A DNA stretch of 50,072 nt from an uncultured Chloroflexota bacterium (GTDB taxonomy: Bacteria; Chloroflexota; Anaerolineae; Aggregatilineales; Phototrophicaceae). This document shows, one piece after another, positions 1 to 50,072 of the stretch; within the stretch, counting starts at the first letter, position 1; every line of letters begins with the position of its first letter. The position numbers and the translations under genes are program-made. The notes under the pieces were generated by a model. That model had not been told where the DNA came from and did no database searches. It saw only the letters and a program-made list of their open reading frames with translations. The stretch is taken from contig CALMZT010000419.1 in assembly GCA_937870805.1 (NCBI GenBank), positions 1 to 50,072 of the forward strand, written 5' to 3'.

Positions 1-111
1 GCAGGGCTTGCTGGATGACTATTTGCGTTCGCAACTCCGCTCCCCGGCTATCCAGATGCAGTTTGCGTAAGTCCTATAAGATTAATTTCCATCACACTTC
101 TCATTGTACTC

Positions 112-3100: not shown

Positions 3101-5967
3101 CCAACGACGGCGCAACGGATAGCAATGTGGCGACGGTGACGATCACGGTGACGTGCGTCAACGACGCGCCAGATGCCGTCGATGACAGCGACACGACGAC
3201 GGAAGATACGCCTGTGACGATTGACGTGCTGGCGAACGACACGGACGTGGACGGCGACACGCTGACGATCACCAGCAACACGCAGGGTGCGAACGGCAGT
3301 GTGACCTGCACGGCGACGGACTGCACCTACACGCCAAATGAGAATTTCTGCGCCACGGACACCTTCACTTACACCATCACCGACGGTGAGCTGGGTGACA
3401 CGGCAACCGTCACTGTCACTATCGTCTGCGGCAACGACGCGCCAGTGGCGAACGACGACAGCTACAGCGTGAATGAAGACACGACGCTGACAGTTCCAGC
3501 ACCGGGTGTGCTCGTCAATGACAGCGATGTCGACAACACACTCGCAGAACTGAGCGTGACGGTGGTGGATGATGTCGATAACGGTACGCTAACACTGAAC
3601 AGTGACGGCAGTTTCACTTACACACCGGATGCTAACTTCTGCGGCGAAGATACCTTCATCTACGAGGTGAGCGATGGCACGCTGACGGATACAGCGACAG
3701 TTACTATCACGGTTAACTGCGTGAACGATGCGCCTGTAGCAGTAGAGGATTGCAACCCCGGCTACAGCGTCAATGAAGGTTCTGTCCTTAATGTAGGCGC
3801 GCCCGGTGTCTTGGGCAACGACAGCGATGTTGAAGGCGACTCAATGAGCGCGGTACTCGTCAGCACGACCTCAAACGGCACGCTGACACTCAACAGCGAT
3901 GGCAGCTTCAGCTACACGCCGAACGCAGACTTCTCTGGCTCAGACAGCTTTACCTACAAGGTGAGCGCCGGTCAACAGGAATCGGAAACCGTTCAGGTTT
4001 GCATCACGGTCAACAACGTACAGCCGAGCGTGACGCTGACCAAGACTGCCAGCCCGACGAGCCTGCCATATCCGGGCGGTACATTCACCTTCACACTGAC
4101 CATCACTAACAACACCAGCGAGCCGGTGACGATTACCAGCCTGACCGACAGCTATCCGCTCTCAGCGCAATGTACAGCGCTGGTCAACACGGTCATTCCG
4201 GGCAATGGCACAGTGTCCTGCACCTACACCGTCAACAAGACGGGCGCGGGTTCATACACTAACACCGCAACCGTGACCGTCCGTGACAACGAACAAAGCA
4301 CTGCGACGAGCAGTGACAGCGAAACCGTCGTCGTGCAATCACCGACAACCCCTGTGGAATGCGGTCCGAACTTTGTCCTCACGGGTCAGATCATCAATGG
4401 CACGCCTGGCAACGACCTGATCTACGGCAACGGCGGCGCGGATGAAATCTATGGTCTTGGCGGCGACGACTGCATCTTCGGTGGTCAGGGTCTGGACAAC
4501 CTGTACGGTGGTCCTGGCAACGACGTGATCTATGGCAATCAAGGTGACGACTACATTGAAGGCGGCGCTGGTTCTGATCTCATCCACGGCAACGAAGATG
4601 ATGATCTGATCCTGGGCGGCGACGACAATGACCAACTGTATGGCGACGCTGGCAGCGACTGCATCTTCGGTCAAAACGGCGATGACTACATCAACGGTGG
4701 CGACGGCGACGATGCTCCGCTGGTCGGTGGCGCTGGCAATGACACCATCTACGGCGGCGCAGGTCACGACGACATTTACGGCGATGGTTACACAGGCAGC
4801 AGCGGTCACGCGGAATTCCCGGCGGACTCTGGCGCGCCCGGTAACGACAACCTGTACGGTGAAGCTGGCGACGATGAAATCATGGGCGGCGGCGGCAACG
4901 ACAACCTCGTGGCGGGTCAAGGCGACGACAACATGTACGGCGAAGCTGGCGATGACCTGCTGACCGGCAACGAACGCAGCGACTACTTCGACGGCGGCGC
5001 GGGCAGCAACGATACGGCGGCAGACTTCTCATCCAGCACGGATGTTGCCTGCGTCAATATCGAGTTCGGCTGCAACGGCGATCCCGATAACGATGGTCTG
5101 CGGAACTCGGTGGACAACTGCCCGCTGGTAAGCAACGCTGACCAGGCAAACACCGATGGTGATGGCTTAGGCAACGCCTGCGACACGGACGACGACAACG
5201 ATACAGTGCTCGACGGTGGGGACAACTGCCCGCTGGTGAGCAACGTCAGCCAGACCAACACCGATGGTGACGGCTCAGGTGATGCCTGCGACAGCGACGA
5301 TGATGGCGACACAGTGCTTGACGGCGCGGACAACTGCCCGCTGGTGAGCAACGTCAGCCAGACCAACACCGATGGTGACGGCTCAGGTGATGCCTGCGAC
5401 AGCGACGATGATGGCGATACTGTTCCTGACATCTCGGATGTATGCCCCGGCTTCGATGACACTGTGGACAGCGACGGCGACGGTACAGCGGACGGCTGCG
5501 ACCCGTACCCGAACGACACGGACAACGATGGCGTGGACAATGGCGCGGATGTGTGCGCAGGCTTCGATGACGGCGTGGACACGGATAGCGATGGCACACC
5601 AGACGGGTGCGACAGCACGCCCAACGGTCTTGAAGTACGTGTTGAGCTGTCATGGAGCGACACAGACAACTACGATCTGGTAAGCTTCCATGTGGCAACC
5701 AACACCTATCCCGCGTATGGTCCGGACGACAATAACGCCTGCATGGGGGATAACGTCGGCTTCGAGCAAGTCACTTATATCGCGCCAACCCCACTCGGTC
5801 AGTACCAGGTAGACGTGTATCTGACGGGTAGTTGCGACAGCATTGCTGCCCCGTGGACGGCGACGATCTACGTGAACAACGTGGCAAGCCCGGTTGTATT
5901 CAACGGCACAGACAGCATCTCTTTCACCTTCACGCTCAACGCGGACGGGACGGTGAGCCAGCCGTAA
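112..5967 (+). CDS. Giant secreted multi-domain adhesin-like protein (parallel beta-helix repeats, Ig/cadherin-like 'tandem-95' repeats, DUF11-like module, RTX Ca-binding repeats, thrombospondin type-3 repeats)
   Basis: Single 5.9-kb ORF. The translation shows GGGIYN-type beta-helix repeats (aa ~40-330) and about nine ~93-aa VNDAPVAxxD...LANDxDxxxDxL...YTPxxxFCGxDxFTY repeats. It also has a TLTKTASP...TITNN module, many GGxGxD nonapeptides (nt ~4400-5000) and [24 protein letters not shown] TSP3 repeats (nt ~5080-5620). GTG at 112 is the first canonical start. The frame is open upstream to nt 19. Confidence 0.85.
2044..3432 (+). repeat. Five tandem ~279-bp (93-aa) near-identical coding repeats inside the adhesin gene
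   Basis: GTCAACGA(T/C)GCGCCAG unit starts are seen at 2044, 2323, 2602, 2878, 3157 and 3430 (periods 279, 279, 276, 279, 273). The periodic antisense shadow ORFs in the ORF track (2259, 2538, 2817, 3093) mirror this. Confidence 0.9.
5113..5436 (+). repeat. Three tandem 108-bp thrombospondin-type-3 coding units, the last two identical over 89 nt
   Basis: GACAACTGCCCGCTGGTGAGCAACGTCAGCCAGACCAACACCGATGGTGACGGCTCAGGTGATGCCTGCGACAGCGACGATGATGGCGA occurs at 5221-5309 and 5329-5417. A diverged copy starts at 5113. Confidence 0.85.
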
Positions 5968-6388: not shown

Positions 6389-9112
6389 TTAACCGTTATT
6401 TGCTAAGAAATCCGCAAATCCCTGCTCACCCAGAGCTGGCACACGATACACCCCAAAATCATCGCCCGCTTGATAAGACACAATCGTCTGATCACGTCCA
6501 TTCGGAAACCAAGCCTGAAGCTGTGATCGTGTATCGGTGTCGTAAACTGAATAAAAGAAGATCAGGTCTTTATCAGGGTCAAGGGCATAACGGTCTGTGC
6601 GCTGCGACGCTTGAAGCAGAACGACAGGCAGTTGATCGCGGCTGACAATTCCATTCGCCCAATCAAGGCGTCCCGCCTCGATGCCAACGGCGCGCAGATC
6701 CCACCACGATGGATAACCGATTAAAAATGCATTGCCATAGCTGCCATCGCTTTCCGCAAATCCTCGCAAAAAGCGCCCCCCCTCGCTGTAGGGCAAAGAA
6801 GAATTCTCATAGGAGATGCGGTAATCGGTAAAGTACAGATTGGTGTTGAGCAGGAAGGCACTACCCACAATCACTAGCAGCATCGCGCCTGTAATCACCC
6901 GTCCTAGCCACTTGTTGCCAATTCTCAACGTTTCATGGACGAGCAAAGCCAGCGGCAGCGCAGCAATCAGATAAGCCAGCGGCAACGCACCGCTGGTGCG
7001 GGTGGCGCTGGGGTTTTCATTGGGGAAAGCAACAGACAGCGCCGACGGCATGAGCATAATCAGCAGCGCTAAAGGAATCAGCCAATGCACAATGTCTCTG
7101 CGCCGCAGCATCAATGCCAACCAAGCAGCCAAGCCAACAATGAACAATGCCCCCGTATACAAATCCATTTCAGGATAATTCGGCACGCCGTTAATCCAAG
7201 CGATATCACCTTTCCAGTTGAACATCAACATCGCGTTGCGGATATTGCTCACCAGAATCGGGAGGTTACGGTTAAAAGCATCGAAGCGCTCTTGCATCGT
7301 AGGAGGGCGTGTCACCGGATTTCCCTGTTCATCTGTCGTTTGAATGGCATTGTCGCCGAATAAACGCCCTGAAGCGCGCAGCCAGAAAAGTTCCGGTCCT
7401 TGCACCCTGTCGTCTAACGAAAAGCTAAGCAGCGGCACAAATGCGACTAAGGCGATGATGACCAAGGCGACGAAATTCAGCAGATAGCGCAGCCGTGTAC
7501 GCCAAGAATGGGCATTAAACACAATAGCCATGAGCACCGCGACAATCACGACGACGGGCAGTATACGTACTGCCTGATAGGTATACAGCCCGAAGCCAAG
7601 CACCAAACCTGCTTTGATAAAGTCTCCACGTCGGTTATCACGCAGCGCCCGCGTCAGATAAATCATCAGCAGCCCGACAACAGCCGGCGTCAGCACAATA
7701 CGCAGCGACAGCCGCGTAATCGATACATGCCAATAGCTCACTGCTACCAATAGTGCCAGCAGCAGCCCGACTGTAGTGCCCAGCCGCGAGTTATGCGGAC
7801 CTACGATTTCGCGTCCCATGAAGAACAAAATCGGCAGCGTCAGCAGGCTTTCGACAACCGCCAGCAGCTTGAGCGTCCCAAAATTCATCCCCAGTCCTGG
7901 CAGTTGAGAGAACAACGCCATCGCATACATTTGGAAAGGTTCACGCCCGCCGTTATTGGCAAAAAAAATCTGGTGATTGCCATCCAGCACGCGCTGGGCA
8001 TCCAGAAGCTTTTCTACGTGGTCGCTTGTCATTTCGGGCGGCACACTCGTGCCCGCCGCGGGGTCACCATTCAAATTGTGCAGGCGGAAATAAGCGCCGA
8101 TTAAAACAATGAAAATCAAAAAGGTCGCTGTCCAACTCCACCGAGGGCGAAATTGACGGAGCTTTTGTATCTGTAAAACTATTTCCTGGATTGGATTCCA
8201 ACTCACGGGAGACAACGCCAGCGACCATAGCACTACACTTGCCATCCATGTCCAAAAGCCTAGCGTTGTGAACTGATTGCCTGGGTTAGCGCTCCATGCC
8301 GTGCTGCTCAAAACCAGCCCGATTGCTGCCAAAAATCCTCGGATGACATAGCCATTGATACTGGCTCTCTCAGACTGCACCTCGGATACGCTGCTCGTTT
8401 GCGGAAGCCAGCGCGCGCCCAGAACTTGCAGCGCGATCCACAACACGCCGCCAATCGCCGCCAGAATAAAGCCAACATCCAGCGATGTCCACACATTTGG
8501 GTTGTAGGGTGAGTTAAAAATGGCGACGATGATAATTACAAAACTGACCAGCAAAAGCCCAACAGGCACAGCACGCAGCTCAGCAAGAAGGTGTTGTGTT
8601 GGGCTTTGACTGTTCCACCAAGTTTTTATATCCGCCCAACTGAAATAAAACTCCGCCGCCACCCACACGAAGAACGCCCAAATCAGCCAAATCGCTGCTG
8701 GATTCAGCGAATTCTGCTCTCCGCGCAGGGTTTCGCTCACCATTATCCGATCCCCATTGAGCGCGAATAGAAATGCCACGAAGAATAGGGTTAAACCTAC
8801 ATAATGCCGAATTGAAAGAAGGGGGATAAAGGAAATTTGCCGCCGCGTTTTAGGCGCTGTAACGTGCTGCGGCGTCCGAATTCTAGGCGAGGTCACGACC
8901 GCATTGTCGGCATAAGATGTGCTACGGGTAATCTGAAACAATGAACGCACCGTCGCAAACGGTGCGCGCACAAGTTGTCCTATAGTCTCCGATAGGGTCA
9001 AATCTTCGAAAGCACGCTCATCCGCCGCTTCGACAACTTCCGCACTTTGCATTTCCTGATTCGCGTCAACATTTTGGGGTTCATCAACATGATCTTCGTG
9101 ATCGTGTGACAT
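6389..9112 (-). CDS. Large polytopic membrane protein, candidate GT-C fold (GT39/PMT_2/ArnT-like) glycosyltransferase
   Basis: 907-aa ORF with an ATG start and >12 predicted hydrophobic helices. The central region (FRLHNLNGDP...EMTSDHVEKLLDA...GREPFQMY...YTYQAVRILP) resembles lipid-carrier-dependent glycosyltransferases as I recall them. The C-terminal ~250 aa are soluble and likely extracytoplasmic. The family assignment is by eye only. Confidence 0.6.
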   Translation of the reverse strand: MSHDHEDHVDEPQNVDANQEMQSAEVVEAADERAFEDLTLSETIGQLVRAPFATVRSLFQITRSTSYADNAVVTSPRIRTPQHVTAPKTRRQISFIPLLSIRHYVGLTLFFVAFLFALNGDRIMVSETLRGEQNSLNPAAIWLIWAFFVWVAAEFYFSWADIKTWWNSQSPTQHLLAELRAVPVGLLLVSFVIIIVAIFNSPYNPNVWTSLDVGFILAAIGGVLWIALQVLGARWLPQTSSVSEVQSERASINGYVIRGFLAAIGLVLSSTAWSANPGNQFTTLGFWTWMASVVLWSLALSPVSWNPIQEIVLQIQKLRQFRPRWSWTATFLIFIVLIGAYFRLHNLNGDPAAGTSVPPEMTSDHVEKLLDAQRVLDGNHQIFFANNGGREPFQMYAMALFSQLPGLGMNFGTLKLLAVVESLLTLPILFFMGREIVGPHNSRLGTTVGLLLALLVAVSYWHVSITRLSLRIVLTPAVVGLLMIYLTRALRDNRRGDFIKAGLVLGFGLYTYQAVRILPVVVIVAVLMAIVFNAHSWRTRLRYLLNFVALVIIALVAFVPLLSFSLDDRVQGPELFWLRASGRLFGDNAIQTTDEQGNPVTRPPTMQERFDAFNRNLPILVSNIRNAMLMFNWKGDIAWINGVPNYPEMDLYTGALFIVGLAAWLALMLRRRDIVHWLIPLALLIMLMPSALSVAFPNENPSATRTSGALPLAYLIAALPLALLVHETLRIGNKWLGRVITGAMLLVIVGSAFLLNTNLYFTDYRISYENSSLPYSEGGRFLRGFAESDGSYGNAFLIGYPSWWDLRAVGIEAGRLDWANGIVSRDQLPVVLLQASQRTDRYALDPDKDLIFFYSVYDTDTRSQLQAWFPNGRDQTIVSYQAGDDFGVYRVPALGEQGFADFLANNG

Positions 9113-13950: not shown

Positions 13951-14391
13951 ATGGGACGCAAACAAAAGCATCCGATTCACCTGAGCGCAGCAGAACGTGA
14001 GCAGTTGGAAGCGATTGCCAGAGGCGGTGAGAACAAGGTGCGGGTGGTGCGGCGGGCGCAGATGCTGTTGTGGAGTGATAGTGGCAAAAGTGATCTTGAG
14101 ATTGCCGCTTTAGTGTCGGTCACGCCCGCGACCATCGCCAACACGCGGCAACGATGGGTCGAGCAGCACAGCCTGTTTGACCAAGCGCGTCCGGGTCGTC
14201 CACCGATAATGGATGGGAAACAAGAAGCTTTCTTGGTGGCGTTGACCTGTAGCGACAGTCCTGACGGACGGGAAAGATGGAGTATGCAGTTATTGGCCGA
14301 TCGGTTAGTCGAATTACAGGTTGTGGAGCAAGCGATTTCGGATGAAACGGTGCGGCGCACGTTGAAAAAAACGAACTCAAACCTTGGCTAA
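13951..14391 (+). CDS. IS630-family transposase, N-terminal HTH part (orfA)
   Basis: The translation has HTH-like segments ([15 protein letters not shown]..., [23 protein letters not shown]). It ends 20 nt after an A7 run. Confidence 0.85.
14365..14371 (+). other. A AAA AAA slippery heptamer joining transposase orfA and orfB (-1)
   Basis: Seven consecutive A at 14365-14371. orfA is in frame 1 and orfB in frame 3 (-1). Slipping here gives ...[18 protein letters not shown]... Confidence 0.5.
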
Positions 14392-15053
14392 AAGAACAAT
14401 GGTGCATTCCCAAGGTGGGCAGCGAGTTTGTGTGGCGCATGGAAGCTGTCTTGGATTTATATGCTGAAGCGTATGATCCAAAGCATCCCCAAGTGTGCTT
14501 TGATGAGCGTCCGGTGCAATTGTTGGGTGACATTTATGCACCGCTCCCGATGCAAAAAGGGCAAGCGCGGCGTTATGATTACGAGTATGCGCGTGCAGGA
14601 ACGGTCAACTTGTTTATGATGGTTCAACCGTTAGCGGGCTGGCGTATGGTCAAAACCACCCAGCGCCGGACAAAAGTCGATTTCGCTGCTTGTATGAAAG
14701 ACTTGGTGGACGTGTATTTCCCGCAGGCGGAAGTCATTCGTGTCGTCTTGGACAATCTCAACACCCATAATCCCAGTTCCTTGTATGAGGCGTTTGAACC
14801 GCAGGAGGCCCGGCGCATCCTCCGCAAACTGGAGTTTCACTACACCCCCAAGCACGGTTCGTGGTTAAACATGGCTGAAATTGAGATTTCGGTCTTAAGT
14901 CGCCAATGTTTGCAACAGCGTCTGGCAAGCATTCCTGAACTTGAAAGGCAGGTGTCTGCTTGGACGACGCAGCGCAATGCACACGCGGTTCAGATCAAAT
15001 GGTGTTTCAACCTTGAAAATGCACGTACCCGATTGGTACGTTTATATCCTTAA
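14370..15053 (+). CDS. IS630-family transposase, DDE catalytic part (orfB, reached by -1 shift at A7)
   Basis: The -1 frame from the A7 run reads [15 protein letters not shown]..., the junction motif I recall from intact IS630-family transposases. The downstream DERPVQL...VLDNLNTH...WLNMAEIE is a DDE-type catalytic region. The ORF-track start at 14415 is internal. Confidence 0.8.
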
Positions 15054-24209: not shown

Positions 24210-24225
24210 AGTTAAGCGCTTAACT
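24210..24225. promoter_or_regulatory. Perfect 16-bp palindrome AGTTAAGCGCTTAACT, candidate LacI-family operator upstream of the second LacI gene
   Basis: Perfect dyad with a central CG, 21 nt upstream of ATG 24247. TTGACA lies at 24179-24184. Confidence 0.55.
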
Positions 24226-31160: not shown

Positions 31161-31176
31161 TGAAAACGTGTTCATA
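31161..31176. promoter_or_regulatory. Candidate LacI-type operator TGAAAACGTGTTCATA (distal copy)
   Basis: Matches the TGnAAnCGnTTnCA-like dyad typical of LacI/CcpA-family operators. It lies just downstream of TTGACA (31130-31135), a 17-nt spacer, then TACTTT. Confidence 0.5.
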
Positions 31177-38480: not shown

Positions 38481-38915
38481 ATGTCAAAGCAAATCCCGCT
38501 CAATAAAAATCAGTTCACGCTCGTCGATGATGAAGAGTTCGAACGCTTGACCGCTTTCGAGTGGAAACTCAGCAGCAAAGGCTACGCGGTGCGCTACGTC
38601 AAGCTTCCCAACGGACGTTTCAGCTACGCGCATATGCACCGCTTCATTCTCGCGGTGACGGAACGTGCCGTCGAAGTGGACCGCATCGATCACAACCGTC
38701 TCAACAACACCCGCGCCAACCTGCGCCTTGCGACGCATAACGAGAATCAATGGCATAAGCGGCTGCCGCCAAATAGCACGACGGGCTTTAAAGGCGTCAG
38801 CCGCTTCGGGGACAAATACAGCGCTGCCCTGCGCTACTACGGTCAACACCTGCACATTGCGCTGGTGGATGATCCCCTCGTGGCGGCACAACTCTACGAT
38901 GCGCTGGCACGATGA
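38481..38915 (+). CDS. HNH-like endonuclease domain fused to AP2/ERF-type DNA-binding domain (homing-endonuclease-like)
   Basis: VDRIDHNRLNNTRANLRLATHNENQ is HNH_3-like. It is followed by TTGFKGVSRFGDKYSAALRYYGQHLHIALVDDPLVAAQLYDALA, an AP2 fold pattern. ATG 38481 was chosen over the ORF-track alternative start at 38418. Confidence 0.75.
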   Translation: MSKQIPLNKNQFTLVDDEEFERLTAFEWKLSSKGYAVRYVKLPNGRFSYAHMHRFILAVTERAVEVDRIDHNRLNNTRANLRLATHNENQWHKRLPPNSTTGFKGVSRFGDKYSAALRYYGQHLHIALVDDPLVAAQLYDALAR

Positions 38916-39932: not shown

Positions 39933-39946
39933 GCGGAACGTTCCGC
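39933..39946. promoter_or_regulatory. Palindrome GCGGAACGTTCCGC (GGAACGTTCC family, site 1)
   Basis: 14-bp perfect dyad, 15 nt after the stop of the 39492-39918 ORF. Confidence 0.55.
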
Positions 39947-40586
39947 GTGTACCATATCGCTATCAGCTCGCTGCGAGAGCGATTGGTAGACTTGGCTCCA
40001 CCAGCGGCAACCTGTTGAAATCGCGGTAGACAAAAGATAGAGGGGTTGTGCGGTGCGCAAAAGGTGCACACCCCGTTGCTCACCCGCCAGACGCAAGCAT
40101 GAAGGAAAAACTGCCTCACGCAGCCAAAATCCGACACAAAACCTCTCAATGTAAGAAATCTACACATAGCATCATACTACCTGTAGATTTGAGCGTGCAG
40201 CGTCTGATCTCCTCACAGAACATCAATAGTGCTGTGATTTAGGACATCAACCCCAGAAACCATAAGGATAGTGTCCTCATGCTTTCCCCTTTCATGAGCT
40301 TTCCCTGACCGGTTAGGCATTCAAGAAGGCTTGACACTTGTGTTGAGGCGGGAACGAGGTGCTCAATCATGACCCATAGAGGCGGGAGCGAGTGTTCCAC
40401 ACCCAAACGCTCAAAACGCTCAAATCTATGAAAGCTACTCAGGTTTCGTCCTGGTCGTAATGCGCTACCCTCTTGTTCGCCTCTAGAGGCTTAGCGTACT
40501 TAGCTCCTACATTTGAGACAATACAATGTACCTGTCAGTGTGCCTATTGCATAACTTTCTTTCATAGACCTATGCCCTGACTTCTG

Positions 40587-41009
40587 TTATCCATCAATTC
40601 CTAGTCGTGGAGAGGTCTGATGCCCAACGTCCCGGATCGCCACTCGCACTTCCCAAGGCGTAGCCCAACAGATCGTGTTCACGTCTCCCTGCCAAAGTCT
40701 CACTGGCTGTGTCAAGCCGAAGCGGCAGTACGATTTACGTGCGTCCGAAACACAGATGATAATCCCATTTGACGCTCCTTTTTTGCCGGAACGTTCCGCT
40801 GCTCTCAGCGCACTCTGCTCTTCCCTCTCAGCAGGCTGCGCTGTTTCCTGACCTTCAGGAGGTAGCGCCTTATCCCGCACCCCACGAGAGTGCTTAGCCG
40901 CCTGAACCCACACGGACAAGGTACAACCTTTCGCTCGCGCATCCTGCATCAAGCACTCCCATTCAGCGTTTTGCTCGCGCTGCTTCGCCGCCGCAACCTC
41001 ACCTATCAC
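40587..41009 (-). CDS. Questionable ORF (possible RHH-like N-terminus)
   Basis: 140-aa ORF. EWECLMQDARAKGCTLSVWVQAAKH faintly resembles ribbon-helix-helix antitoxin/CopG helices. The ORF contains one GGAACGTTCC palindrome and sits in a motif-dense region, so it may be non-coding. Confidence 0.3.
   Translation of the reverse strand: MIGEVAAAKQREQNAEWECLMQDARAKGCTLSVWVQAAKHSRGVRDKALPPEGQETAQPAEREEQSALRAAERSGKKGASNGIIICVSDARKSYCRFGLTQPVRLWQGDVNTICWATPWEVRVAIRDVGHQTSPRLGIDG
40787..40798. promoter_or_regulatory. Palindrome CGGAACGTTCCG (site 2)
   Basis: 12-bp perfect dyad. Confidence 0.5.
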
Positions 41010-41080: not shown

Positions 41081-41096
41081 TTTGGAACGTTCCAAA
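41081..41096. promoter_or_regulatory. Palindrome TTTGGAACGTTCCAAA (site 3)
   Basis: 16-bp perfect dyad, 72 nt upstream (minus-strand sense) of the 40587-41009 ORF and downstream of the primase gene. Confidence 0.55.
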
Positions 41097-41288: not shown

Positions 41289-43781
41289 TCAACCCCTGAT
41301 CGGTCTGAACTCGTCAAAATCCCGTCCGATATGTGCCTGTTGTGCGACATCAGCAGCCCTCAACCCAAGTATGGCGAGCAAATCGCGGTAGTCTTTGATG
41401 CGGCGCATAATTTCGCCGGTCGGTCGGTCAATCAACAGGGTGCTGCCCTCGCTGTGATGGGCGTGGTAGCCGGTTACCAATTCAACCGCTAAAACCAGCT
41501 GACCAAACACCCAGCGTGGGTTATACCCTTGTCGATAATCATGTTTGAGGGTCAAGCGCGGCGCTTTTGGGGTTCGAGTACAGTAGTGGGGGACGGGTTC
41601 ACGCCGCGCTTTTGGCTCTGGCTCGGCGGGTTCCTTGAGTACAAGGTAGTAGCTGTTGGCGAGACGTGTACGCGCGACAATCTGGCGTCCCTGAGCGCGT
41701 TGGGCGTTCACCCATTGGCTATCCACTTGTGACAGGCAGCGTGATTCAACGTAGCGCTCACCTTCCTTTGCTTTGAGTTCAAATACCTTCCCCTTATGCT
41801 GGTAGCTGATACGCCGAATTTCTTTCGCGAGGTCAGCCGTGGGTTGTATCGGAAATTCTCCAAAATTGGGGCTGCTCTCAATGCCTGCGCGGTCCATGAT
41901 TTTGGGAACATAAGACTCAGCACAGTTGAGTTCGCGGGCAAGTTGTTTTTGTGAGATGGGCTTGCCGGCTGTCTCCCGAATGATGGCGCGTGCTTTGGCG
42001 GCGCACGGGTCATAAGTTGCCCAGATCGGCTCCAATTGGAGAATACGCGGGCTTTCCAGTCCGGCGGCTAAACGTTCATAGTCAGCATTAAACCGTTTGA
42101 TCGCCTGCTCACGCTGCCACGACTGGCGCTGATGGGCGGGTTCAATCGCATGCATCACAGCGGCGGCAAGCTCGCGGTTAGGCTCCCCTGTGAGGGCTGC
42201 CAACATCTCCGGCGTAAACCGTGCCAGTGTCTTTTCGCCTGTGTGTTTCTCTGCCAAATAACGGCGCGCCAATTGGAGTAGATTGGCGCGGATGACCGCT
42301 TCAGGTTGAGCGTGATAGACGATTGCGCGGCGTCCGGTGGAGTTTTTGTCAAAATTCGGGGGTATAGAACCCGTACTCCCTACTTTTGACAAAAAGAGGT
42401 CTTTGAGCGCCAATTCCTCTAAACCGCGTGCGATGGTCCGGGGTGAAAGCTGCACCTGCAAAATCTCAGCGGCGGCGATCACATCCTTCACTGTGAAGCC
42501 TTCGGCGGCGATCAATCCGCTGTTGATCGCGCTGTTCAGGAGGCGTGCGATCTTTTCGCAGCGTTTGGCTGAACTGCCGTCCGGCAAGGCGTCTCTGAGA
42601 ATTTCCCCTACGGCACTGGGCAAATCACCCTCCCACCACCCCGTTTGGCGCGTAGAGGCGCGGTACCAGGCGGCAAGATCGCCGTCCTGCTGTAAGAACG
42701 CGGTGGGGTCTTTCACGCCTTGCGGCAGGGTCAGTGGCTTGCTCCCCAGCGCCGCTAACTGCTCCAAGGGTTTCGCTTTTTTGCCCGCGGCGTCATTGTC
42801 AAACAGCGTGTAAATCTGTCCGGCGGTTTTGAGGCGTTCCAGAAAACGCCGCTTGATCGGCGTTGAAGCGCTGCCGACGGTGATGACTGTGACCTGTGGG
42901 AGCGCTGCCTGTGCGACAATGGCGTCAAACTCGCCCTCGACGACCAGCACGTCGCGTCCGCTTTCGAGACGGTCGGCTCCGAACGGAATGCCGGTTCGAT
43001 GTCCGCGTAAACCGATATACTTGTCTACTGGGGTTCCGTCCTTGTGCGTGTCGGTGATGTGGAGCGCGGCGGCAAAATCCCCGACATGGCGCCGGGTCTT
43101 GACGTTCCATAACTGACCCTCGGCTTCAATCGGGATGGTGATGCCGCGGGCGAGTGCGATTTTTCCGGTGTCGTCTTCGAGGCCCATGTCCTGCCATTGG
43201 GGGTTGTAGCCGATGCCGTACTTTTCGATTAAAGCGTCTGTAATGCCGCGATTGTGCAGATAGTCGCGGGTCGCGCGGGCTTGGGGATGGTCAGAGTGCC
43301 TCAAAAACTCATGTGCGCGTGTAGCAGCGGCGCGGGCGGCGCGCTGCCATGCGGTGGGCGGGGGTTCGTCGGCGCTGGATGTGTGCTCTAATCGTCTCAC
43401 AGCAGGGCGCGCCGCGCGGGCGGCGGTCCCTGCCAGCTCTTGCAAGACTTCGGCGGTGGATAAACCGTGATAGCGCTTCATGAAGTCGATCACATCGCCC
43501 CCTATGCCGCACGCGCCATAGCAGCGCCATGTTTGCGCCCGTGGGTCGACCTTAAAGGAAGGCGTCTTCTCGTCATGGAACGGGCAGCACGCCACTAAAA
43601 GGCGTCCCTGGCGCTTGAGGGAGACCAAACCCCCGATATACGTCTCGATGTCGGGCTTAAGGCGATCAATATCAGCACGGGGCTGTCCCTGAGGGCGTTG
43701 CCGCTGCTGAACATCGGTCTGAGGATAGACACTAGCGCCATCTTTTGCTATCATATCATTAACCTTTGAGTTTGATCTCAT
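41289..43781 (-). CDS. DnaG-type primase (CHC2 zinc finger + Toprim) fused to a ~450-aa C-terminal region with HTH/winged-helix-like segments; no helicase motif seen
   Basis: CCPFHDEKTPSFKVDPRAQTWRCYGACGIGGDVIDF is a CHC2 zinc finger. VLVVEGEFDAIV...LFDNDAAGKKA is Toprim. The C-terminal part has HTH-like SQKQLARELNCAESYVPKI. I found no Walker A motif. Confidence 0.85.
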   Translation of the reverse strand: MRSNSKVNDMIAKDGASVYPQTDVQQRQRPQGQPRADIDRLKPDIETYIGGLVSLKRQGRLLVACCPFHDEKTPSFKVDPRAQTWRCYGACGIGGDVIDFMKRYHGLSTAEVLQELAGTAARAARPAVRRLEHTSSADEPPPTAWQRAARAAATRAHEFLRHSDHPQARATRDYLHNRGITDALIEKYGIGYNPQWQDMGLEDDTGKIALARGITIPIEAEGQLWNVKTRRHVGDFAAALHITDTHKDGTPVDKYIGLRGHRTGIPFGADRLESGRDVLVVEGEFDAIVAQAALPQVTVITVGSASTPIKRRFLERLKTAGQIYTLFDNDAAGKKAKPLEQLAALGSKPLTLPQGVKDPTAFLQQDGDLAAWYRASTRQTGWWEGDLPSAVGEILRDALPDGSSAKRCEKIARLLNSAINSGLIAAEGFTVKDVIAAAEILQVQLSPRTIARGLEELALKDLFLSKVGSTGSIPPNFDKNSTGRRAIVYHAQPEAVIRANLLQLARRYLAEKHTGEKTLARFTPEMLAALTGEPNRELAAAVMHAIEPAHQRQSWQREQAIKRFNADYERLAAGLESPRILQLEPIWATYDPCAAKARAIIRETAGKPISQKQLARELNCAESYVPKIMDRAGIESSPNFGEFPIQPTADLAKEIRRISYQHKGKVFELKAKEGERYVESRCLSQVDSQWVNAQRAQGRQIVARTRLANSYYLVLKEPAEPEPKARREPVPHYCTRTPKAPRLTLKHDYRQGYNPRWVFGQLVLAVELVTGYHAHHSEGSTLLIDRPTGEIMRRIKDYRDLLAILGLRAADVAQQAHIGRDFDEFRPIRG

Positions 43782-43945
43782 CGTCGATTCGCCTGTTACA
43801 ACAGGCGTTTTTCTTCCTCTGCTCTTCCCTGCCTCATATCACCTGGAAAAGGTGTTTGTGTCCCTGCTGATGCGGCACAGTGGCTCACTGCTTTTAACCA
43901 AACCTGTTCGCATATTTGCTTTCTTGTGATACAATCCATGTAGTC

Positions 43946-43955
43946 GGAACGTTCC
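43946..43955. promoter_or_regulatory. Palindrome GGAACGTTCC (site 4) upstream of the primase gene
   Basis: 10-bp perfect dyad, 165 nt upstream of the primase start. A CGTTCC half-site follows at 43982-43987. Confidence 0.5.
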
Positions 43956-44760
43956 ACGCGTTGTCCTTATGACGAACCAGGCGTTCCATCGAGGTTACCC
44001 ATCGTGGTCGCTTTGGCTTAAAATCCCTGCCTTGCTCGTCCCACTGTGCCGTAAGTTTGCTGACTCTTGACACAGTGGAAACGAGGTTTGTAATGGCTGG
44101 GATTTTTTGCGTCTTATTTCTAATCGTGAGTGTAACATATTTTTGCTATATCTCTCTGTCAAAACTTTTTTTCAAAAGCCTCATCATCCGTGAAACGTTA
44201 TTTACCGTTCATGATTTTGAAGGTGATATTTATCCCCCAGAAGATGGACATTGCTCCAGCTCTGGTCCTTTTAGACTCTGATGGGTTCAATTTTCCGCCT
44301 GTAATTCTTGAATAGACTTAACGTACTCGTTTTGCTTATAATAATGTCCATACCCTGTGTCACCGTCATAAACACTGTCTCGTAGCCCTTAGTGCGGGAA
44401 TAGGATGTCATGACTGTGCAGCTAAGGTCAATCAACCATCACCTCGCTGGCAAACACCTTAAAACGCTGGCTACTCCTGCTGTTTTGCGCTATGCCTTAC
44501 CTATGCTCCCCCCAATTGGTGACAAACACAAAGTACACTTGTCAGATCACACTTTCGCGCTATACTTGAAAGTGTATTGAAGCAAATAATCCACTGCTTC
44601 GTGCGGAGGGTGTAACACGATAAGCACTCGCAAGGTTTTCCTGACCATAGGGGCGAGTGTTTTTCGCTTTTATAGACCAGTTAGACTCTACCGCATAATC
44701 AAAAATCCGCAAGTCCCCTTGAATCGAAGGCTTTCTGCCTGTCTGTTGCACCCTCCTCGG

Positions 44761-45852
44761 TTATGATGATTGTGACTTCTTCAGCCGCATCATTGCAAAA
44801 CGCAAGCCCCCCACCGCGTTCATATCCACTGGATGCACTTTTGCTGTTGAAAGGCTACTCTTGGGGTCAAGGATTTTGTTGCCGTACCACTTTTTCATAA
44901 AGTCATGTACCAACGTTGTTCCCCCACCGACTAAGATGACTGACTTCACCCCTTTGAAGCCACCAAACACCCCATCGGCGATATTGTTGGCGATCCATTC
45001 AGCAAAGCGCTCACGGTACTTGTCCACCAGCGGCTTCAGATCAACGGCTAGTCCTGCTGCGCGCAGTGTGTAGTCACCTTTCTCCAGTCCCGCGCGGATG
45101 ACCAAATCGATGTCGTCGACGGTGATATTGGCGAAATCCTCAGCCTTCTTCTTGATGACGCTCAAGATGGGTTCGCGGAGGTGGACATTGATGCCGCCGT
45201 TTTCCCACGTTGCGAATTGCAGCGCTTCAGGGTTGAAGTTGCCGTCCGTCAGCTTGAGGGCGTCGAGGGTATATGCCCCCATGTCCAACACCACTGTGTC
45301 TCCGGAGAGTACGTCACTTTTCACGACCTCGCCTTTATCATCGAGGATGAAGCAAGCGGCTGCGCCGACGCCTTCGGGCCAGACGGTGACGTTCTCATAC
45401 GTCCACTCGCGGGGTTTCTTGTCGGCTTTGAAGCGGATTTCGACCTCGCCTTTGTCTTCCATCAAGCGCTTGATGATGTCGGGTTTGAGCTGGTTGTATG
45501 CGCCGGGTGGTGCGAATAAAGTGAGGTCTACAGTGCCTTTGGTGACACCCAGTTTACCAATGGCGACGGCGATCAAAAACTGCTGCATCTCGTTGGCGTA
45601 GCGATTGAGACCCATGTGGCGCTCAAGATTGCGACGGGTGACGCGGATGACATCATCGCCATACACATAGCGATGTCCATTCCAATCCACCCAATCGTAC
45701 TGCATTTCGAGGTTAGCGCCTAAACCCAGCGTATCGCCAGTTGCTGCCGCACGTACTGAGGGGAAATAAACGCTGGTGTACCCCCCCTTCTTCGCCATCA
45801 CGGCGTTTGTCCCGCCGTTGCCCGCATCCACAGAAATCACATGGTCAGCCAT
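44761..45852 (-). CDS. ParM/StbA-like actin-family segregation ATPase
   Basis: Actin-fold signatures appear in order: ISVDAGNGGTN (phosphate 1), WPEGVGAA, VVLDMGAYTLD (phosphate 2), VILVGGGT (adenosine). 363 aa. Confidence 0.8.
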   Translation of the reverse strand: MADHVISVDAGNGGTNAVMAKKGGYTSVYFPSVRAAATGDTLGLGANLEMQYDWVDWNGHRYVYGDDVIRVTRRNLERHMGLNRYANEMQQFLIAVAIGKLGVTKGTVDLTLFAPPGAYNQLKPDIIKRLMEDKGEVEIRFKADKKPREWTYENVTVWPEGVGAAACFILDDKGEVVKSDVLSGDTVVLDMGAYTLDALKLTDGNFNPEALQFATWENGGINVHLREPILSVIKKKAEDFANITVDDIDLVIRAGLEKGDYTLRAAGLAVDLKPLVDKYRERFAEWIANNIADGVFGGFKGVKSVILVGGGTTLVHDFMKKWYGNKILDPKSSLSTAKVHPVDMNAVGGLRFAMMRLKKSQSS

Positions 45853-45864
45853 TGGTCAGTCCTT

Positions 45865-46356
45865 TTATTGTTGCAGGCGAAGCATCGAGTTCAAGAAGTT
45901 GAGTGCCGAATCTGTATTGGTGTCGCGTTGGATGACGAGTGTATCTTCCTCATCATCAAAGCGAGGGAGATCGAACTTGGGTGTATTTAACGCTTGTGGT
46001 CCATCGATGATGATAGGTTGGAGTTGCCTGGTTGTGTCATGGAGCACGGCTCTCTCACTGGTGAGTAGTTTCTCAAGGCGCTCCAATTGGTGCTGCAACT
46101 CTAACTCCCCTGCTGTTTTCTGTGGGTGTATTTCTACTAGAAGCTCTGCTTTGACGAAAGGAAATAGTTCAAATAGCACATCTACCCTGCCATGTTTAAG
46201 GTCAAAGAAAAGTCGCAAAGCGTCGCGAATCGTTTTAACGAACGTGCGCTTCACTTTTAGTTCATGGATGCGCTCGTCAAGTTGATCTTCATTATCTTTT
46301 TTTAAATCAAGCCAAAACTTGTGCATAACACGATAGCGAGTTTGTGCTGGCATCAT
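45865..46356 (-). CDS. Hypothetical protein with RHH-like N-terminus and acidic C-terminus (candidate ParR-like adaptor)
   Basis: 163 aa, 12 nt upstream of the ParM-like gene on the same strand. YRVMHKFWLDL + DQLDERIHELK + TFVKTIRDALRLFFDL fits a strand-helix-helix pattern. Confidence 0.5.
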   Translation of the reverse strand: MMPAQTRYRVMHKFWLDLKKDNEDQLDERIHELKVKRTFVKTIRDALRLFFDLKHGRVDVLFELFPFVKAELLVEIHPQKTAGELELQHQLERLEKLLTSERAVLHDTTRQLQPIIIDGPQALNTPKFDLPRFDDEEDTLVIQRDTNTDSALNFLNSMLRLQQ

Positions 46357-46371
46357 CTATATTCCTATTGT

Positions 46372-46418
46372 TGGCATTAATGCCATTGGCATTCTACCAC
46401 AATTTGCATAATTGCAAA
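46372..46418. promoter_or_regulatory. Cluster of dyad sites in the divergent promoter region (candidate operator/centromere-like site)
   Basis: TGGCATTAATGCCA is a perfect 14-bp palindrome at 46372-46385. It is followed directly by TTGGCATT (46386-93). TTTGCA-TAAT-TGCAAA lies at 46403-46418. Confidence 0.45.
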
Positions 46419-46510
46419 ACTAAATATAGAATTATGGCGAACCAAAGCGCTTTGTAGAGGTCATAGTGCTCTCACTTTTGTTTTTACCTCTAAGTGAATA
46501 TCCAAGATGT

Positions 46511-47101
46511 ATGAATTACACGACTACTGACGCTGAAAATATCTTTAAAGTTGCGCCTCAAACTGTACGTAACTGGGCGCGGGAGTTTGCACGATACTTA
46601 TCGGTTAGCGCTAACCCGCAAGAGGGCAAAACCCGTATCTTCAGCGAAGATGATATGCGTGTGTTAGAGCTTGTGGCGCGCATGAAACGCGAAAACAAGC
46701 ACCATGATGAGATTCATGTGACTTTGATGGCAGGTGAACGGGGAAATCTGCCTAGTTTTTCACCTGATGAGGTTCGCGCTCTGGTTTCTGGTGAGGTTGA
46801 GCGCAAACTCCACCTGGAGATTCAGGTGCTTCGCCGTCAGTTGGATGCTGCCGAACAAAAGGCACAAGATGCTGAGCGCTATCACTCAGAGAACATCAAA
46901 CTCAAAGCTCAATTAGAGGCTGCGGAGAAGCGCGCCCAAGACCTGCTAGAGCAATTAAAGTCAGCTAATGAGGCGCAGCAACTCTCTATCCTCGAATCTC
47001 TTAAGCGGGTTGAGGATCTTGCCAAACAAATCGGCGATGCTTATGTCAAAGGTGTCATGGAAACCTTAAATCGCAAGGGGGACCTGCCGGATAAAAAATA
47101 G
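46511..47101 (+). CDS. MerR/excisionase-type HTH protein with long C-terminal coiled coil
   Basis: The N-terminus FKVAPQTVRNWAREFARYLS...RIFSEDDMRVLELVARMK fits the MerR-type HTH pattern. The C-terminal ~100 aa are heptad-rich (LEIQVLRRQLDAAEQKAQDAE...). ATG 46511 was chosen over the ORF-track start at 46466. Confidence 0.7.
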   Translation: MNYTTTDAENIFKVAPQTVRNWAREFARYLSVSANPQEGKTRIFSEDDMRVLELVARMKRENKHHDEIHVTLMAGERGNLPSFSPDEVRALVSGEVERKLHLEIQVLRRQLDAAEQKAQDAERYHSENIKLKAQLEAAEKRAQDLLEQLKSANEAQQLSILESLKRVEDLAKQIGDAYVKGVMETLNRKGDLPDKK

Positions 47102-47204: not shown

Positions 47205-47378
47205 ACTCACCTTACGCAGTTTATCGCTCTGGGTTCAAAACCCAGCGCTAACAGAGCATGGATAAACCTCTGAAGAGGTTGAAACATCGCAGCCCCAACC
47301 CGTGAACCTGTTTCTAACGCCCATAACTGGCAGTTCAAAACTGCCAGCGTCCACAGCGAACGGTTGCGTAAGGTGAGT
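47205..47378 (+). ncRNA. Candidate structured RNA (or DNA-level palindrome cluster): 14-bp closing helix enclosing three perfect hairpins, two with GTTCAAAAC T-loop-like loops
   Basis: ACTCACCTTACGCA (47205-18) pairs perfectly with TGCGTAAGGTGAGT (47365-78). The internal hairpins are CTGGG-TTCAAAA-CCCAG (47229-45), AACCTC-TGAA-GAGGTT (47265-80) and CTGGCAG-TTCAAAA-CTGCCAG (47327-47). The strand is unresolved. The overlapping 60-aa ORF is judged spurious. Confidence 0.4.
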
Positions 47379-47498: not shown

Positions 47499-47635
47499 AA
47501 GCAAGGGATGAGTTCAATTCGCGATAAATTCATGAGCTTAAACTCAACTATTTAATTGTGAATAAATTGCGAAAAATTGTAAATAATTAAGAATATTAAT
47601 TGTTTTTTGCGAAAGGCGACATAGAATGAGTTAAA

Positions 47636-48278: not shown

Positions 48279-49426
48279 GATTCGCATACAAGAAGGGGGC
48301 ATAGAAGTCCCCTTGCTTCGGATTTATAAAAGCAAACACTCGTTTTTAAATGCTCAGAAAACCAACGGGTATTCCCATAAATTGAGTCTTTTCACTCAAT
48401 GATTAAAGCGAGCCTCAAACCAGGCGAAAATCTGAAGCCGAATTCCGAAGGCGTACCTGCTGAGCGACACCCTTTCAGACTGCGCGTGTGGGTCTCAACG
48501 CGATGAAACCCCAGCCCAAAATGATGATCCACAGCGATGACCAGCCGCGAGAAAACTTGAAGAAAACCCCGTTCTGATTTATCATCCTAATTAGCAAGAT
48601 TAGTTGATAAATCTATGGGTTTGTTCAAGCGCCTTGCGAAATCCCGGCTAACAAGCTGGGATTTTGGTTTTAGTACAGCACGCATCACGCTTGTAGCCAT
48701 TAATTTAACGCGATTGCTCACGAGAGTCAAGAAATTCGTCTCCTTCATTATAGAATCTGTCTGAAAGCTCCATTTCTCCAAAATCCAAGCCGCGTGGCAA
48801 CACCTGCCGCTTCACAAGGGTAGGTATTTAAGGAAAGGAATTGAGCGCACGCCAGAACCTCACCCCCTTTGTCCCCCTCTCCCCTTTAGAAACGCAGTGA
48901 AATTGGGAGTCCAGACACGTGGAGAGGGGGAAATGCTCCGCGTGCAGGAAAATAGGCTTGAGGGAAGGATGTTTTTGAGTTCATGTTGCAACTAGCATTA
49001 AAAACCTACCCTTGCAAACCCCTGCCGCCATCCTGGCTGAATTTTTTATTTGGCGGATGGCGAGGCTGTCGCTGCCATTGAACGGACAGCGGCGGCAGAT
49101 GGTGAGGCTGGTGCTGCCGCTCTGTGCGGCGCGTGCGCGGCAACAGCGGCGGTTCGACGGGAGCGATGTGCCACGCAGCGCCAAGAGGGCAGCCGCCTCA
49201 GAGATCAGCGTAGTAATCATGAACTCTGTTCACCGAAAGCGATGAAAATGTATCGCGGAAGGCACCCATCAGGCGGGCGCACACGTTGGTGCGCCCCTAC
49301 AAAGACCTTTGTGCTCTCCCGTAACATTCATTCTGCAAGGCTATTTTCAGGATAGCACAAATGAGACGTCATTTGCGTTCCTTTTGACACTTTAATGCGG
49401 GATGTAATGTAGGGGAGTGGCTAAAA

Positions 49427-49510
49427 GCGGAACGTTCAATGTTAAAGGTGGAACGCTAAATATTAAAAATGGGACGTTAAATGCAAAAAGTGGAACACTG
49501 GCGAAGGGAG
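49427..49510 (+). repeat. Iteron-like array: four direct repeats at exact 21-bp phasing, core GGAACG
   Basis: The units are GCGGAACGTTCAATGTTAAAG, GTGGAACGCTAAATATTAAAA, ATGGGACGTTAAATGCAAAAA and GTGGAACACTGGCGAAGG. Cores start at 49429, 49450, 49471 and 49492. ORFs on both strands here merely translate the repeat. Confidence 0.7.
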
Positions 49511-50004
49511 GACTGAGAACTCGCTGGAAATTCAATTTGGCAAAGACTTTGTTAGCGCAGATAAAAAGCCTGTCACACCAGAAAAAGGGGAGTCGGCTTT
49601 TTATCAATAATTCCCCAAAAACTTTGGTTATCAGAAACTTACCGTAACAATCCTTCCTCATACCCTGTCGCTCATTTAGTTAGTAATTGCGTTCGTTATC
49701 AATATGAAGCTCGTAAATAATTCCTCAAGAACGTAAAACTATTGTGAATTAACATTCATATACTATTTTAGTTAACATAATAATATCCGTATACTGTGGG
49801 CTATAACATGACTTTTTTCCTACTTCTCAAGTAGAAACAGCATTCTGGTGTTATTGCGACTGTGACCAAAAACGGTCAACATGAGGTATAAACACCAGTA
49901 TTTGTTGTAATAATTAGCATTATCAGGGGAAGATTATGATTAAAAGACTAAGATAGGACTTACGCAAAAGAGCGCGAAAAAGGGGGAGACGATAAACTAG
50001 TGGC

Positions 50005-50072
50005 ATGAGTACCGTAACCCGCCTCGACTACTGTCAGTTTCTGTTGGTCAGTCAAACGAACTATACATTGAC
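50005..50072 (+). CDS. 5' fragment of a probable DDE transposase gene running off the window
   Basis: ATG 50005 opens MSTVTRLDYCQFLLVSQTNYTL. I recall the DYCQ(F/Y)LL.SQ.NYT N-terminal pattern from IS4/IS701-like transposases. Only 22 codons are visible. Confidence 0.35.
   Translation, partial: MSTVTRLDYCQFLLVSQTNYTL

Follow-up and report, generated by a model that had tools for sequence, protein, structure and literature searches.

A helically phased array of 21-bp direct repeats lies on a circular plasmid from an uncultured bacterium of the Anaerolineae type and looks, to judge from its sequence, like a docking array for a DNA-binding protein of that plasmid. The window, that is the whole stretch of DNA that was analysed, is an entire contig of 50,072 bp; contigs identical to it are also contained in SRR28401826. 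We tentatively favour the possibility that a protein binds the phased repeats as part of the circuit for replication or copy control of the plasmid, where the array would serve either as origin or as an element that titrates the initiator. A function as replication origin, as put forward in the original prediction, is possible and is one of several functions of comparable likelihood. The array would thus be an element of a known type, on an interesting but ordinary plasmid backbone.

Results

The contig closes into a circular plasmid

Both ends of the contig belong to one insertion sequence (IS). A degenerate search pattern built on the N-terminal residues of the truncated transposase recovered other copies of this IS, at 37 metagenome loci. 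In the 30 loci with both ends, the element has a size of 1062–1077 bp, most often 1074 bp, and its terminal inverted repeat begins with TAGGACTTACGC; the transposase is of the DDE type and has 340 aa. Comparison with these copies assigns the first 119 bp of the IS, including the terminal inverted repeat and the transposase ATG at 50005, to positions 49954–50072 (plus strand; the alignment to the left end begins at 49953/4) and its last 76 bp, the right end, to positions 1–76 (plus strand). Similarity to the 37 loci ends at 49949–49955 in essentially all of them. Several copies elsewhere are flanked by perfect 5-bp target duplications of varied sequence, and here the duplication TAAGA flanks both IS ends (49949–49953 and 77–81). 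When the IS and one TAAGA are removed, the ATG at 49936 joins position 82 in frame. The first six codons of an adhesin gene (MIKRLR, 49936–49953, plus strand) then continue at 82–5967, and the restored ORF of 1967 aa starts with a canonical signal peptide. Because the two contig ends belong to a single IS flanked by a target duplication and its removal restores the adhesin ORF, the contig closes into a circle of ~50,951 bp. The molecule is a circular plasmid of ~51 kb (~50.95 kb), and the check on circularity that had been proposed earlier was answered by closure through a single IS of 1074 bp.

Besides the genes for two giant surface proteins, the plasmid has three LacI/ABC clusters for sugar uptake, which include rhamnosidase and GH3 genes. 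It further carries an IS630 element and encodes a resolvase, a sortase, a primase of the DnaG type and a ParM module. Domain searches place the primase gene at 41289–43781 on the minus strand; its product combines a Zn-ribbon and a Toprim domain (residues 35–375) with an orphan C-terminal region of 450 aa. Across all backbone ORFs, searches with Pfam, PHROGs and NCBIfam recognized this primase as the sole replication protein. Its only full-length homologue is P0006 (locus L044), and the contig encoding it, 3.4 kb in size, offers no informative flanking sequence. The partition module, delimited by domain searches and comparison with relatives, spans 44761–47101 and consists of a ParM-like actin (44761–45852, minus strand), a 163-aa partner whose N-terminus resembles, by eye, a ribbon-helix-helix motif (45865–46356, minus strand) and a divergently encoded MerR-type HTH plus coiled-coil protein (46466–47101, plus strand). 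This trio is conserved in relatives. The ParM family comprises 386 homologues at E<1e-40, many of them on contigs of 35–60 kb, and the closest ParM relatives are found in Chloroflexota/Anaerolineae MAGs. At the DNA level, the loci L002–L005 and L045–L047 share only the par module. The plasmid of ~51 kb, with its sugar-uptake operons and giant adhesins, belongs to a widespread family of ParM-bearing elements. The closed circle, the ParM module and the primase all bear out the original prediction that the window covers the maintenance region of a plasmid.

A phased array of 21-bp repeats

The repeat array with 3.6 copies occupies positions 49422–49499 on the plus strand. Tandem Repeats Finder (TRF) called it at 49422–49496 with a period of 21, 3.6 copies, 74% matches, no indels and a score of 87, and a repeat search found three copies in register at a spacing of 21/21 with 75–78% identity. 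The units start at 49429, 49450, 49471 and 49492 and read GGAACGTTCAATGTTAAAGGT / GGAACGCTAAATATTAAAAAT / GGGACGTTAAATGCAAAAAGT / GGAACACTGGCG... In 100 dinucleotide-preserving shuffles of the region 43.8–50.07 kb, the best array with a period of 15–30 scored 45 as against the 87 observed, so that the array is not a chance feature. The four cores at exact distances of 21 bp, as first noticed by reading the sequence, were recovered by TRF as well and stood out against the shuffles. Units 1–3 are identical at 13 of 21 positions, and unit 4 is partial with its first 8 nt kept (GGAACACT). What is repeated fourfold is an A-tract followed by a YGGRACRYT core.

Upstream of the array, the start of the unit recurs as an extra inverted copy (GGAACGCAAATGA on the minus strand, 49369–49381), the centre of which is 53 bp or ~5 helical turns away from the core of unit 1. 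Between this copy and the array lies a perfect TTGACA hexamer (49384–49389, plus strand). No usable −10 element follows the hexamer and the site is absent from the promoter scan output; its status as a promoter is doubtful. Two 11-nt arms, GATAAAAAGCC / GGCTTTTTATC, form a perfect inverted repeat around a spacer of 24 nt at 49560–49605, between the array and the AT-rich tract described below. A reading of the array as structured RNA was dropped, as there was no Rfam match over the array and its RNA fold gave no folding signal against shuffled controls (z-score +0.25).

Palindromic sites around the primase gene share the core of the array

A plasmid-specific palindrome, CGGAACGTTCCG, is found around the primase gene in four exact copies and one near copy. 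The exact copies, located by pattern search, are GCGGAACGTTCCGC (39933–39946), CCGGAACGTTCCGC (40786–40799), TTGGAACGTTCCAA (41082–41095) and TCGGAACGTTCCAC (43944–43957), the last of which precedes the start codon of the primase gene by 165 bp; the near-palindromic site ACGGAACGTGCCGT (38658–38671) has one mismatched pair. With their flanks the palindromes read nCGGAACGTTCCGn. Three of them fall in a non-coding stretch of 1.37 kb downstream of the primase gene, which contains other repeats too. The core GGAACGTTCC occurs exactly at 39935, 40788, 41084 and 43946, i.e. in four copies in the contig, whereas we estimate that ~0.05 copies of a 10-bp palindrome would be expected by chance in 50 kb.

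In unit 1 of the array, the palindromic site is nearly complete (49426–49437, AGCGGAACGTTC). These 12 nt are shared with the site CCGGAACGTTCCGC, where the same 12-mer is found at 40789–40800. The 8-mer GAACGTTC is present in five copies in the contig, all of them in the backbone, namely in the four palindromes and in unit 1; the estimated chance of finding it inside a 78-bp array is ~0.001. The earlier observation that the array shares its core with four palindromes near the primase gene is upheld by both the 8-mer and the 12-mer. A separate match of 12 nt to 13947 is simply the start of the IS630 transposase gene.

The related locus L005 has a different replicase, of the PriCT_2 type, and a palindrome of its own that is centred on ACGT, GATTACGTAATC, with three exact and three near copies that are located around the replicase and in promoters of small genes, including that of a 92-aa winged helix-turn-helix (wHTH) protein. 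Since the L005 palindrome flanks the different replicase of that locus, such palindromic sites appear to track the replicon. The idea of a palindromic site at the start codon of ParM, based on GATTACGTAATC in L005 and GATAACGTTATC in L004, was rejected: the sequence encodes D-x-V-I there, and in the window and L003 it forms no palindrome. From these sequences, backbones of this kind seem to have palindromes specific to each plasmid, and the same recognition system seems to include the array.

The AT-rich tract lies upstream of the adhesin gene

The AT-rich tract begins 180 bp past the last repeat. Sequence, composition and stability profile delimit it as the DNA 5′ to the giant adhesin gene (49680–49935, plus strand, 31% GC). 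The strongly AT-rich character over ~270 bp that had been noted before is real: positions 49680–49950 have 31.4% GC and form the second-lowest 270-bp window of the contig, with four other intergenic regions close to this value (31.1–33.7%). Both dyads named at the time are present as well, CTACTT-CTC-AAGTAG at 49821–49835 and CTGGTGTT/AACACCAG at 49845/49892. The tract also contains promoter-like hexamers at 49749–49784 and an SD-like GGGGAAG at 49926–49932, and a repeat search found no 13-mer-type repeats in it.

In a nearest-neighbour stability profile computed on the IS-free circle (mean −144.6, sd 9 kcal/mol), the least stable 60 bp (49733–49792) and the least stable 100 bp (49695–49794) both lie inside the tract, 200–370 bp downstream of the array. 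The margin of the 100-bp minimum is small, with −111.2 kcal/mol versus −113 to −116 kcal/mol in four other promoter regions, and the 200-bp minimum lies outside the tract, at 31.1 kb. The relative L003, in which the gene order is as in the plasmid (MerR-like gene, accessory genes, giant secreted protein), is equally AT-rich over ~250 bp before the gene of the giant secreted protein and has no repeat array. The AT-richness of the tract is non-specific and weak evidence for an unwinding element. With the left IS boundary at 49954, the tract lies outside the IS, and the alternative once considered, that it is the end of the IS, gives way to its assignment as the adhesin upstream region.

Search for an initiator, origin signatures and related arrays

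The genes nearest to the array encode the sortase and the adhesin, and searches of all backbone ORFs with Pfam, PHROGs and NCBIfam revealed no Rep initiator gene near the array or elsewhere on the plasmid. No DnaA box (TTATCCACA, up to one mismatch) was found in 49000–50072; such boxes occur in many, though not all, iteron origins. The GC-skew analysis that had been suggested as a check gave no inflection at the array: cumulative GC skew, a weak proxy on a mosaic plasmid of 51 kb, shows no switch near 49 kb, and a fit to the skew at 4-fold sites with the origin fixed near 49 kb left 95% of the variance unexplained. The best fit at 4-fold sites, in which a few genes dominated, placed the origin close to 20 kb. 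Of the iteron origin first suggested for this site, the size, number and phasing of the repeats hold; the origin reading is set back by the lack of Rep gene, DnaA box and 13-mers in the searches described here, and by the distance of 180 bp to the AT-rich tract. It is further weakened because the tract is explained as the adhesin upstream region and L003 is equally AT-rich without an array, and because the units are only ~75% identical with a partial fourth one. The non-coding regions at 39.9–41.3 kb and 43.8–44.8 kb, which adjoin the primase gene and contain the perfect palindromes as well as additional repeats, rank no lower than the array as origin candidates.

Comparable arrays were absent from eight related ParM-carrying loci. 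A pattern of two array units with 23 fixed bases had no match in IMG/VR and JGI metagenome contigs, and blastn of 48.9–50.07 kb against PLSDB gave no match. The origin reading receives no comparative support: the array is absent from the relatives, and the primase C-terminal region has a single homologue, on a short contig. For the protein p141 we found no homologues; its single-sequence AlphaFold model had a pLDDT of 48, and that of the primase C-terminal region was likewise of low confidence with a pLDDT of 51. Foldseek searches with both models gave no match at E<0.5; against the PDB, the primase C-terminal region had insignificant matches only, mostly to wHTH regulators. Sequence searches of the PDB for the binding protein added nothing.

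Discussion

We propose that the array presents cis-acting, helically phased sites for a plasmid-encoded, sequence-specific protein that also recognizes CGGAACGTTCCG. Unit 1 as the nearly complete palindromic site could nucleate binding, while units 2–4 and the inverted copy upstream would offer YGGRAC half-sites on one face of the helix, on which the complex might extend cooperatively into a larger nucleoprotein structure. Such a structure could act in one of two ways: the array may be the origin itself, with melting in the AT-rich DNA 200–370 bp downstream, or it may be an initiator-titrating element of the handcuffing type. Known iterons have 17–22 bp, come in 2–7 copies and show cooperativity that depends on helical phase (PMC4980987). 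We favour the role in replication or copy control because the array exceeds chance expectation, is phased at exactly 21 bp and falls in the iteron range in size and copy number, and because the core of its unit 1 is common to the palindromes around the primase gene. The palindrome before the primase start codon argues in the same direction, as it resembles the iteron/operator duality of Rep systems such as those of pPS10, F and R6K. In addition, a circular replicon needs an origin and elsewhere we recognized neither a canonical Rep nor a canonical origin, the least stable DNA of the circle is close to the array, and L005 has its own palindrome flanking its own replicase.

Nearly as likely as this role, and thus possible while still on the doubtful side, is an array of transcriptional operators that has nothing to do with replication. 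The palindromes would then serve as operators for a global repressor of the plasmid or for a LacI-type regulator, with unit 1 as an additional operator, situated either a short way downstream of a promoter that reads rightward (TTGACA at 49384) or at a long distance upstream of the adhesin promoter. Units 2–4 would be auxiliary half-sites and the controlled transcript would run toward the adhesin gene. The palindromes do lie in intergenic, promoter-like places, the analogous palindromes in L005 are directly upstream of small genes such as the one for the 92-aa wHTH protein, and the array itself sits in a 1.7-kb leader between the sortase terminator (48637–48666) and the adhesin ATG. Unit 1 would be at about +10 to +25 of the TTGACA-containing promoter, which however lacks an acceptable −10 element and was missed by the promoter scan, and the array is separated by 250–350 bp from the promoter-like hexamers downstream of it in the AT-rich tract. 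The core GGAACGTTCC is that of the CebR2/CelR box (PMC9953190, PMC3377646) and the plasmid encodes three LacI regulators, but its sugar operons use different LacI-type operators (GTTAAGCGCTTAAC, TGAAAACGTGTTCA), and four half-sites of the same orientation at a two-turn spacing are not normal for dimeric repressors. Rather unlikely, in our view, is a neutral or decaying tandem duplication, in which a 21-bp segment with one palindromic site was amplified by slippage, the copies drifted and only unit 1, if any, is functional. The copies are 74–78% identical, the last one is an 8-nt stub, 3.6 copies are typical of slippage products, the array is unique to this plasmid, and the 1.7-kb spacer around it tolerates insertions, with two or three MITE-like elements upstream and the IS downstream. 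A drifting duplication does not fit well with three junctions free of indels despite ~25% substitutions, with the preferential conservation of core and A-tract positions (13/21 invariant) or with the extra inverted copy upstream, which is in helical phase.

The readings as ParM centromere, coding repeat, structured RNA and IS end are poorly supported. In the first of these, which we regard as improbable, the 163-aa adaptor would coat four direct repeats of a parC-like site and the resulting segrosome would be captured by ParM filaments. Like the array, type II centromeres consist of direct repeats in tandem, which in pSK41 are continuous; parC, however, is positioned immediately upstream of the par operon (PMC5016525), while the array, although a conserved ParM module is 3 kb away, lies 3.07 kb from the operon start (46356) and beyond two genes. 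The divergent MerR/adaptor promoter region holds short repeats of its own, none of which resembles GGAACG; such repeats are ATGCCAA heptads at 46371/46386 in the window and are found at 2848–2878 in L045, 9422–9458 in L047 and 7131–7193 in L003. In L003, L004, L005, L045, L046 and L047, no array of at least three copies was found at distances of up to 10 kb from ParM. It is very unlikely that the array is a protein-coding heptad repeat, either for a small basic peptide or as a relic of a beta-helix adhesin repeat. The array is in frame in an ORF of 76 aa (49417–49647) and reads GTFNVKG GTLNIKN GTLNAKS GTLAKGG, the frame is open, Leu is kept via CTA, TTA and CTG, and Gly and Thr via synonymous changes. 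The codon score is above that of all out-of-frame windows of real genes but below that of 98% of genuine in-frame windows, and the ORF has a GTG start with an abutting SD-like run. An exhaustive phmmer search against 1.84 billion representatives gave four low-complexity heptad-repeat matches and no orthologue, there was no Pfam or PHROGs match even at E up to 10, and no gene with this product is on record. As for the array and AT-rich tract forming the terminal or subterminal part of an IS, or of a Tn7-like end with tandem transposase-binding sites, the chances are slight in the extreme. Tn7-type right ends do have about four contiguous 22-bp sites, but the plasmid has neither a second, inverted array nor Tn7-type genes. 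The IS end is refuted by the boundary at 49954, at which the 30 full copies start exactly with their terminal inverted repeat and near which similarity to all 37 loci stops. Some residual probability remains for functions of the array beyond those considered here.

Within the favoured role in replication or copy control, one might go further and speculate that the array and the CGGAACGTTCCG palindromes are the iteron/operator pair of an undescribed replicon, with the primase, through DNA binding by its orphan C-terminal region, or a very small orphan protein like p141 as initiator; we consider this improbable on present evidence, and the primase is not known to be an iteron-binding initiator. 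If true, it would be the first replication origin defined for plasmids of Anaerolineae/Chloroflexota. We found no open-access literature joining Chloroflexi, plasmids and iterons, and we know of no genetic tools for Anaerolineae. Should array, palindromes and primase form a working replicon, it would provide a minimal shuttle-vector origin for a large, mostly uncultured phylum and also an example of an initiator-primase fusion.

Comparison with known systems

The type II parC sites of R1 and pSK41 are tandem direct repeats cooperatively bound by a ribbon-helix-helix adaptor. The plasmid resembles them in having tandem direct repeats together with a ParM-type actin and a ribbon-helix-helix-like partner, and differs in that the array is 3 kb off the par operon, the par promoter has other repeats and related par loci are without an array. 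With the operators of the CebR2/CelR LacI-family systems, which have the box TGGGAACGTTCCCA (PMC9953190, PMC3377646), the palindromes share an identical 10-bp core, and three LacI-type regulators are encoded on the plasmid. Unlike these operators, the palindromes do not precede the sugar operons, which bear other operators, and the array has its half-sites in the same orientation at 21-bp spacing.

The likeness to theta-type iteron origins, such as those of pPS10, F (oriS), R6K (gamma), RK2 (oriV) and P1 (oriR), extends to the four direct repeats of ~21 bp in exact phase, the core in common with inverted-repeat sites near the replication gene, the easily melted AT-rich DNA close by and the circular plasmid with a partition module alongside. 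In contrast to these origins, we detected no winged-helix Rep gene, DnaA boxes or 13-mer repeats here, the AT-rich tract is 180 bp off and doubles as the upstream region of a gene, the repeats are only ~75% identical, and a DnaG-type primase, whose C-terminal region is an orphan, stands alone as replication protein. The oriV of IncQ plasmids (RSF1010) has 3.5 iterons of 20 bp, followed by GC-rich and AT-rich segments and by ssi hairpins for the plasmid primase. While the primase found here is of the DnaG type and not of the RepB′ type, and neither a RepC-like iteron binder nor a RepA helicase was found on the plasmid, the arrangement as such is similar to that of IncQ, with 3.6 repeats of ~20 bp, a spacer, AT-rich DNA and dyads on a plasmid that encodes its own primase.

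Plasmid closure and insertion sequences

The two ends of the contig (1-81 and 49949-50072, target duplication copies included) are the two ends of one 1074-bp copy of an insertion sequence (IS), and the contig is therefore a circle of ~50,951 bp, closed through this single IS. The element has the terminal inverted repeat (TIR) TAGGACTTACGC, encodes a DDE_Tnp_1 transposase of 340 aa and is inserted at codon 6 of a gene for a secreted adhesin (1967 aa), where it is flanked by the 5-bp target duplication TAAGA. It is common in metagenomes, where 37 loci were found. An IS630-family transposase at 13952-15053 is apparently split into two frames, the upstream one starting from the ATG at 13952 and the DDE_3 frame spanning 14415-15053, which suggests a frameshifted or two-ORF arrangement.

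Three MITE-like elements are located at 47205-47378 (TIRs of 28 nt), 48815-49014 (17 nt) and 48948-49348 (26 nt). The TIR core of the first, CTTACGCA, is similar to the TIR of the contig-end IS, and the third contains a segment of 62% GC (49015-49300). Independent contigs of this plasmid in Logan are interrupted at these MITE-like repeats, namely at 47232/47355 and at 48845. Upstream of the sortase gene lie AT-rich repeats AATTGYGAA with a period of 10-11 bp and 3-5 copies (47553-47610); over 60-100 bp, only one other stretch of the plasmid is less stable.

The ParM module promoter

Every relative has short repeats in the promoter region that separates the MerR-like gene from the divergently oriented gene of the ParM partner (160-170 aa). 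In the window they comprise ATGCCAA heptads and TTGCA-N4-TGCAA (46357-46465), while the related loci L045 (2848-2878) and L047 (9422-9458) carry tandem repeats of 15-16 bp and L003 has its repeats at 7131-7193. This repeat-bearing promoter is likely the parC/operator of a conserved three-gene ParM module.

The primase region and its palindromes

The primase gene (41289-43781, minus strand) encodes an N-terminal part with a DnaG-type Zn-ribbon and Toprim, followed by a C-terminal region of 450 aa with a single homologue among 5.8 billion clusters, P0006 (49% identity), annotated by JGI as 'AraC-like DNA-binding protein'. Downstream of the gene, a dense non-coding repeat set at 40156-40428 is an alternative origin candidate. 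It comprises a hairpin (40156-40190), a perfect inverted repeat of 13 nt (40184/40416), the direct repeats GAGGCGGGAACGAG / GAGGCGGGAGCGAG (40345/40379) and 2.2 copies of AAACGCTCA (40405).

The primase gene is also the centre of a cluster of the plasmid-specific palindrome CGGAACGTTCCG at 38658, 39933, 40786, 41082 and 43944, with the 10-bp core exact in four copies and nearly so in one. The related Anaerolineae element L005 has a multi-copy palindrome of its own, GATTACGTAATC (1726, 2941, 3502, 8256, 8619 and 9082), which flanks its PriCT_2 primase-polymerase gene and also occurs in promoters of small genes, one of which encodes a 92-aa wHTH protein. Elsewhere in the window, two of the three LacI genes, which belong to sugar-uptake clusters, have a typical LacI-family operator just upstream (GTTAAGCGCTTAAC at 24211 and TGAAAACGTGTTCA at 31161). 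The core of the palindrome CGGAACGTTCCG, a putative protein site, is the same as that of the actinobacterial CebR2/CelR boxes of the LacI family.
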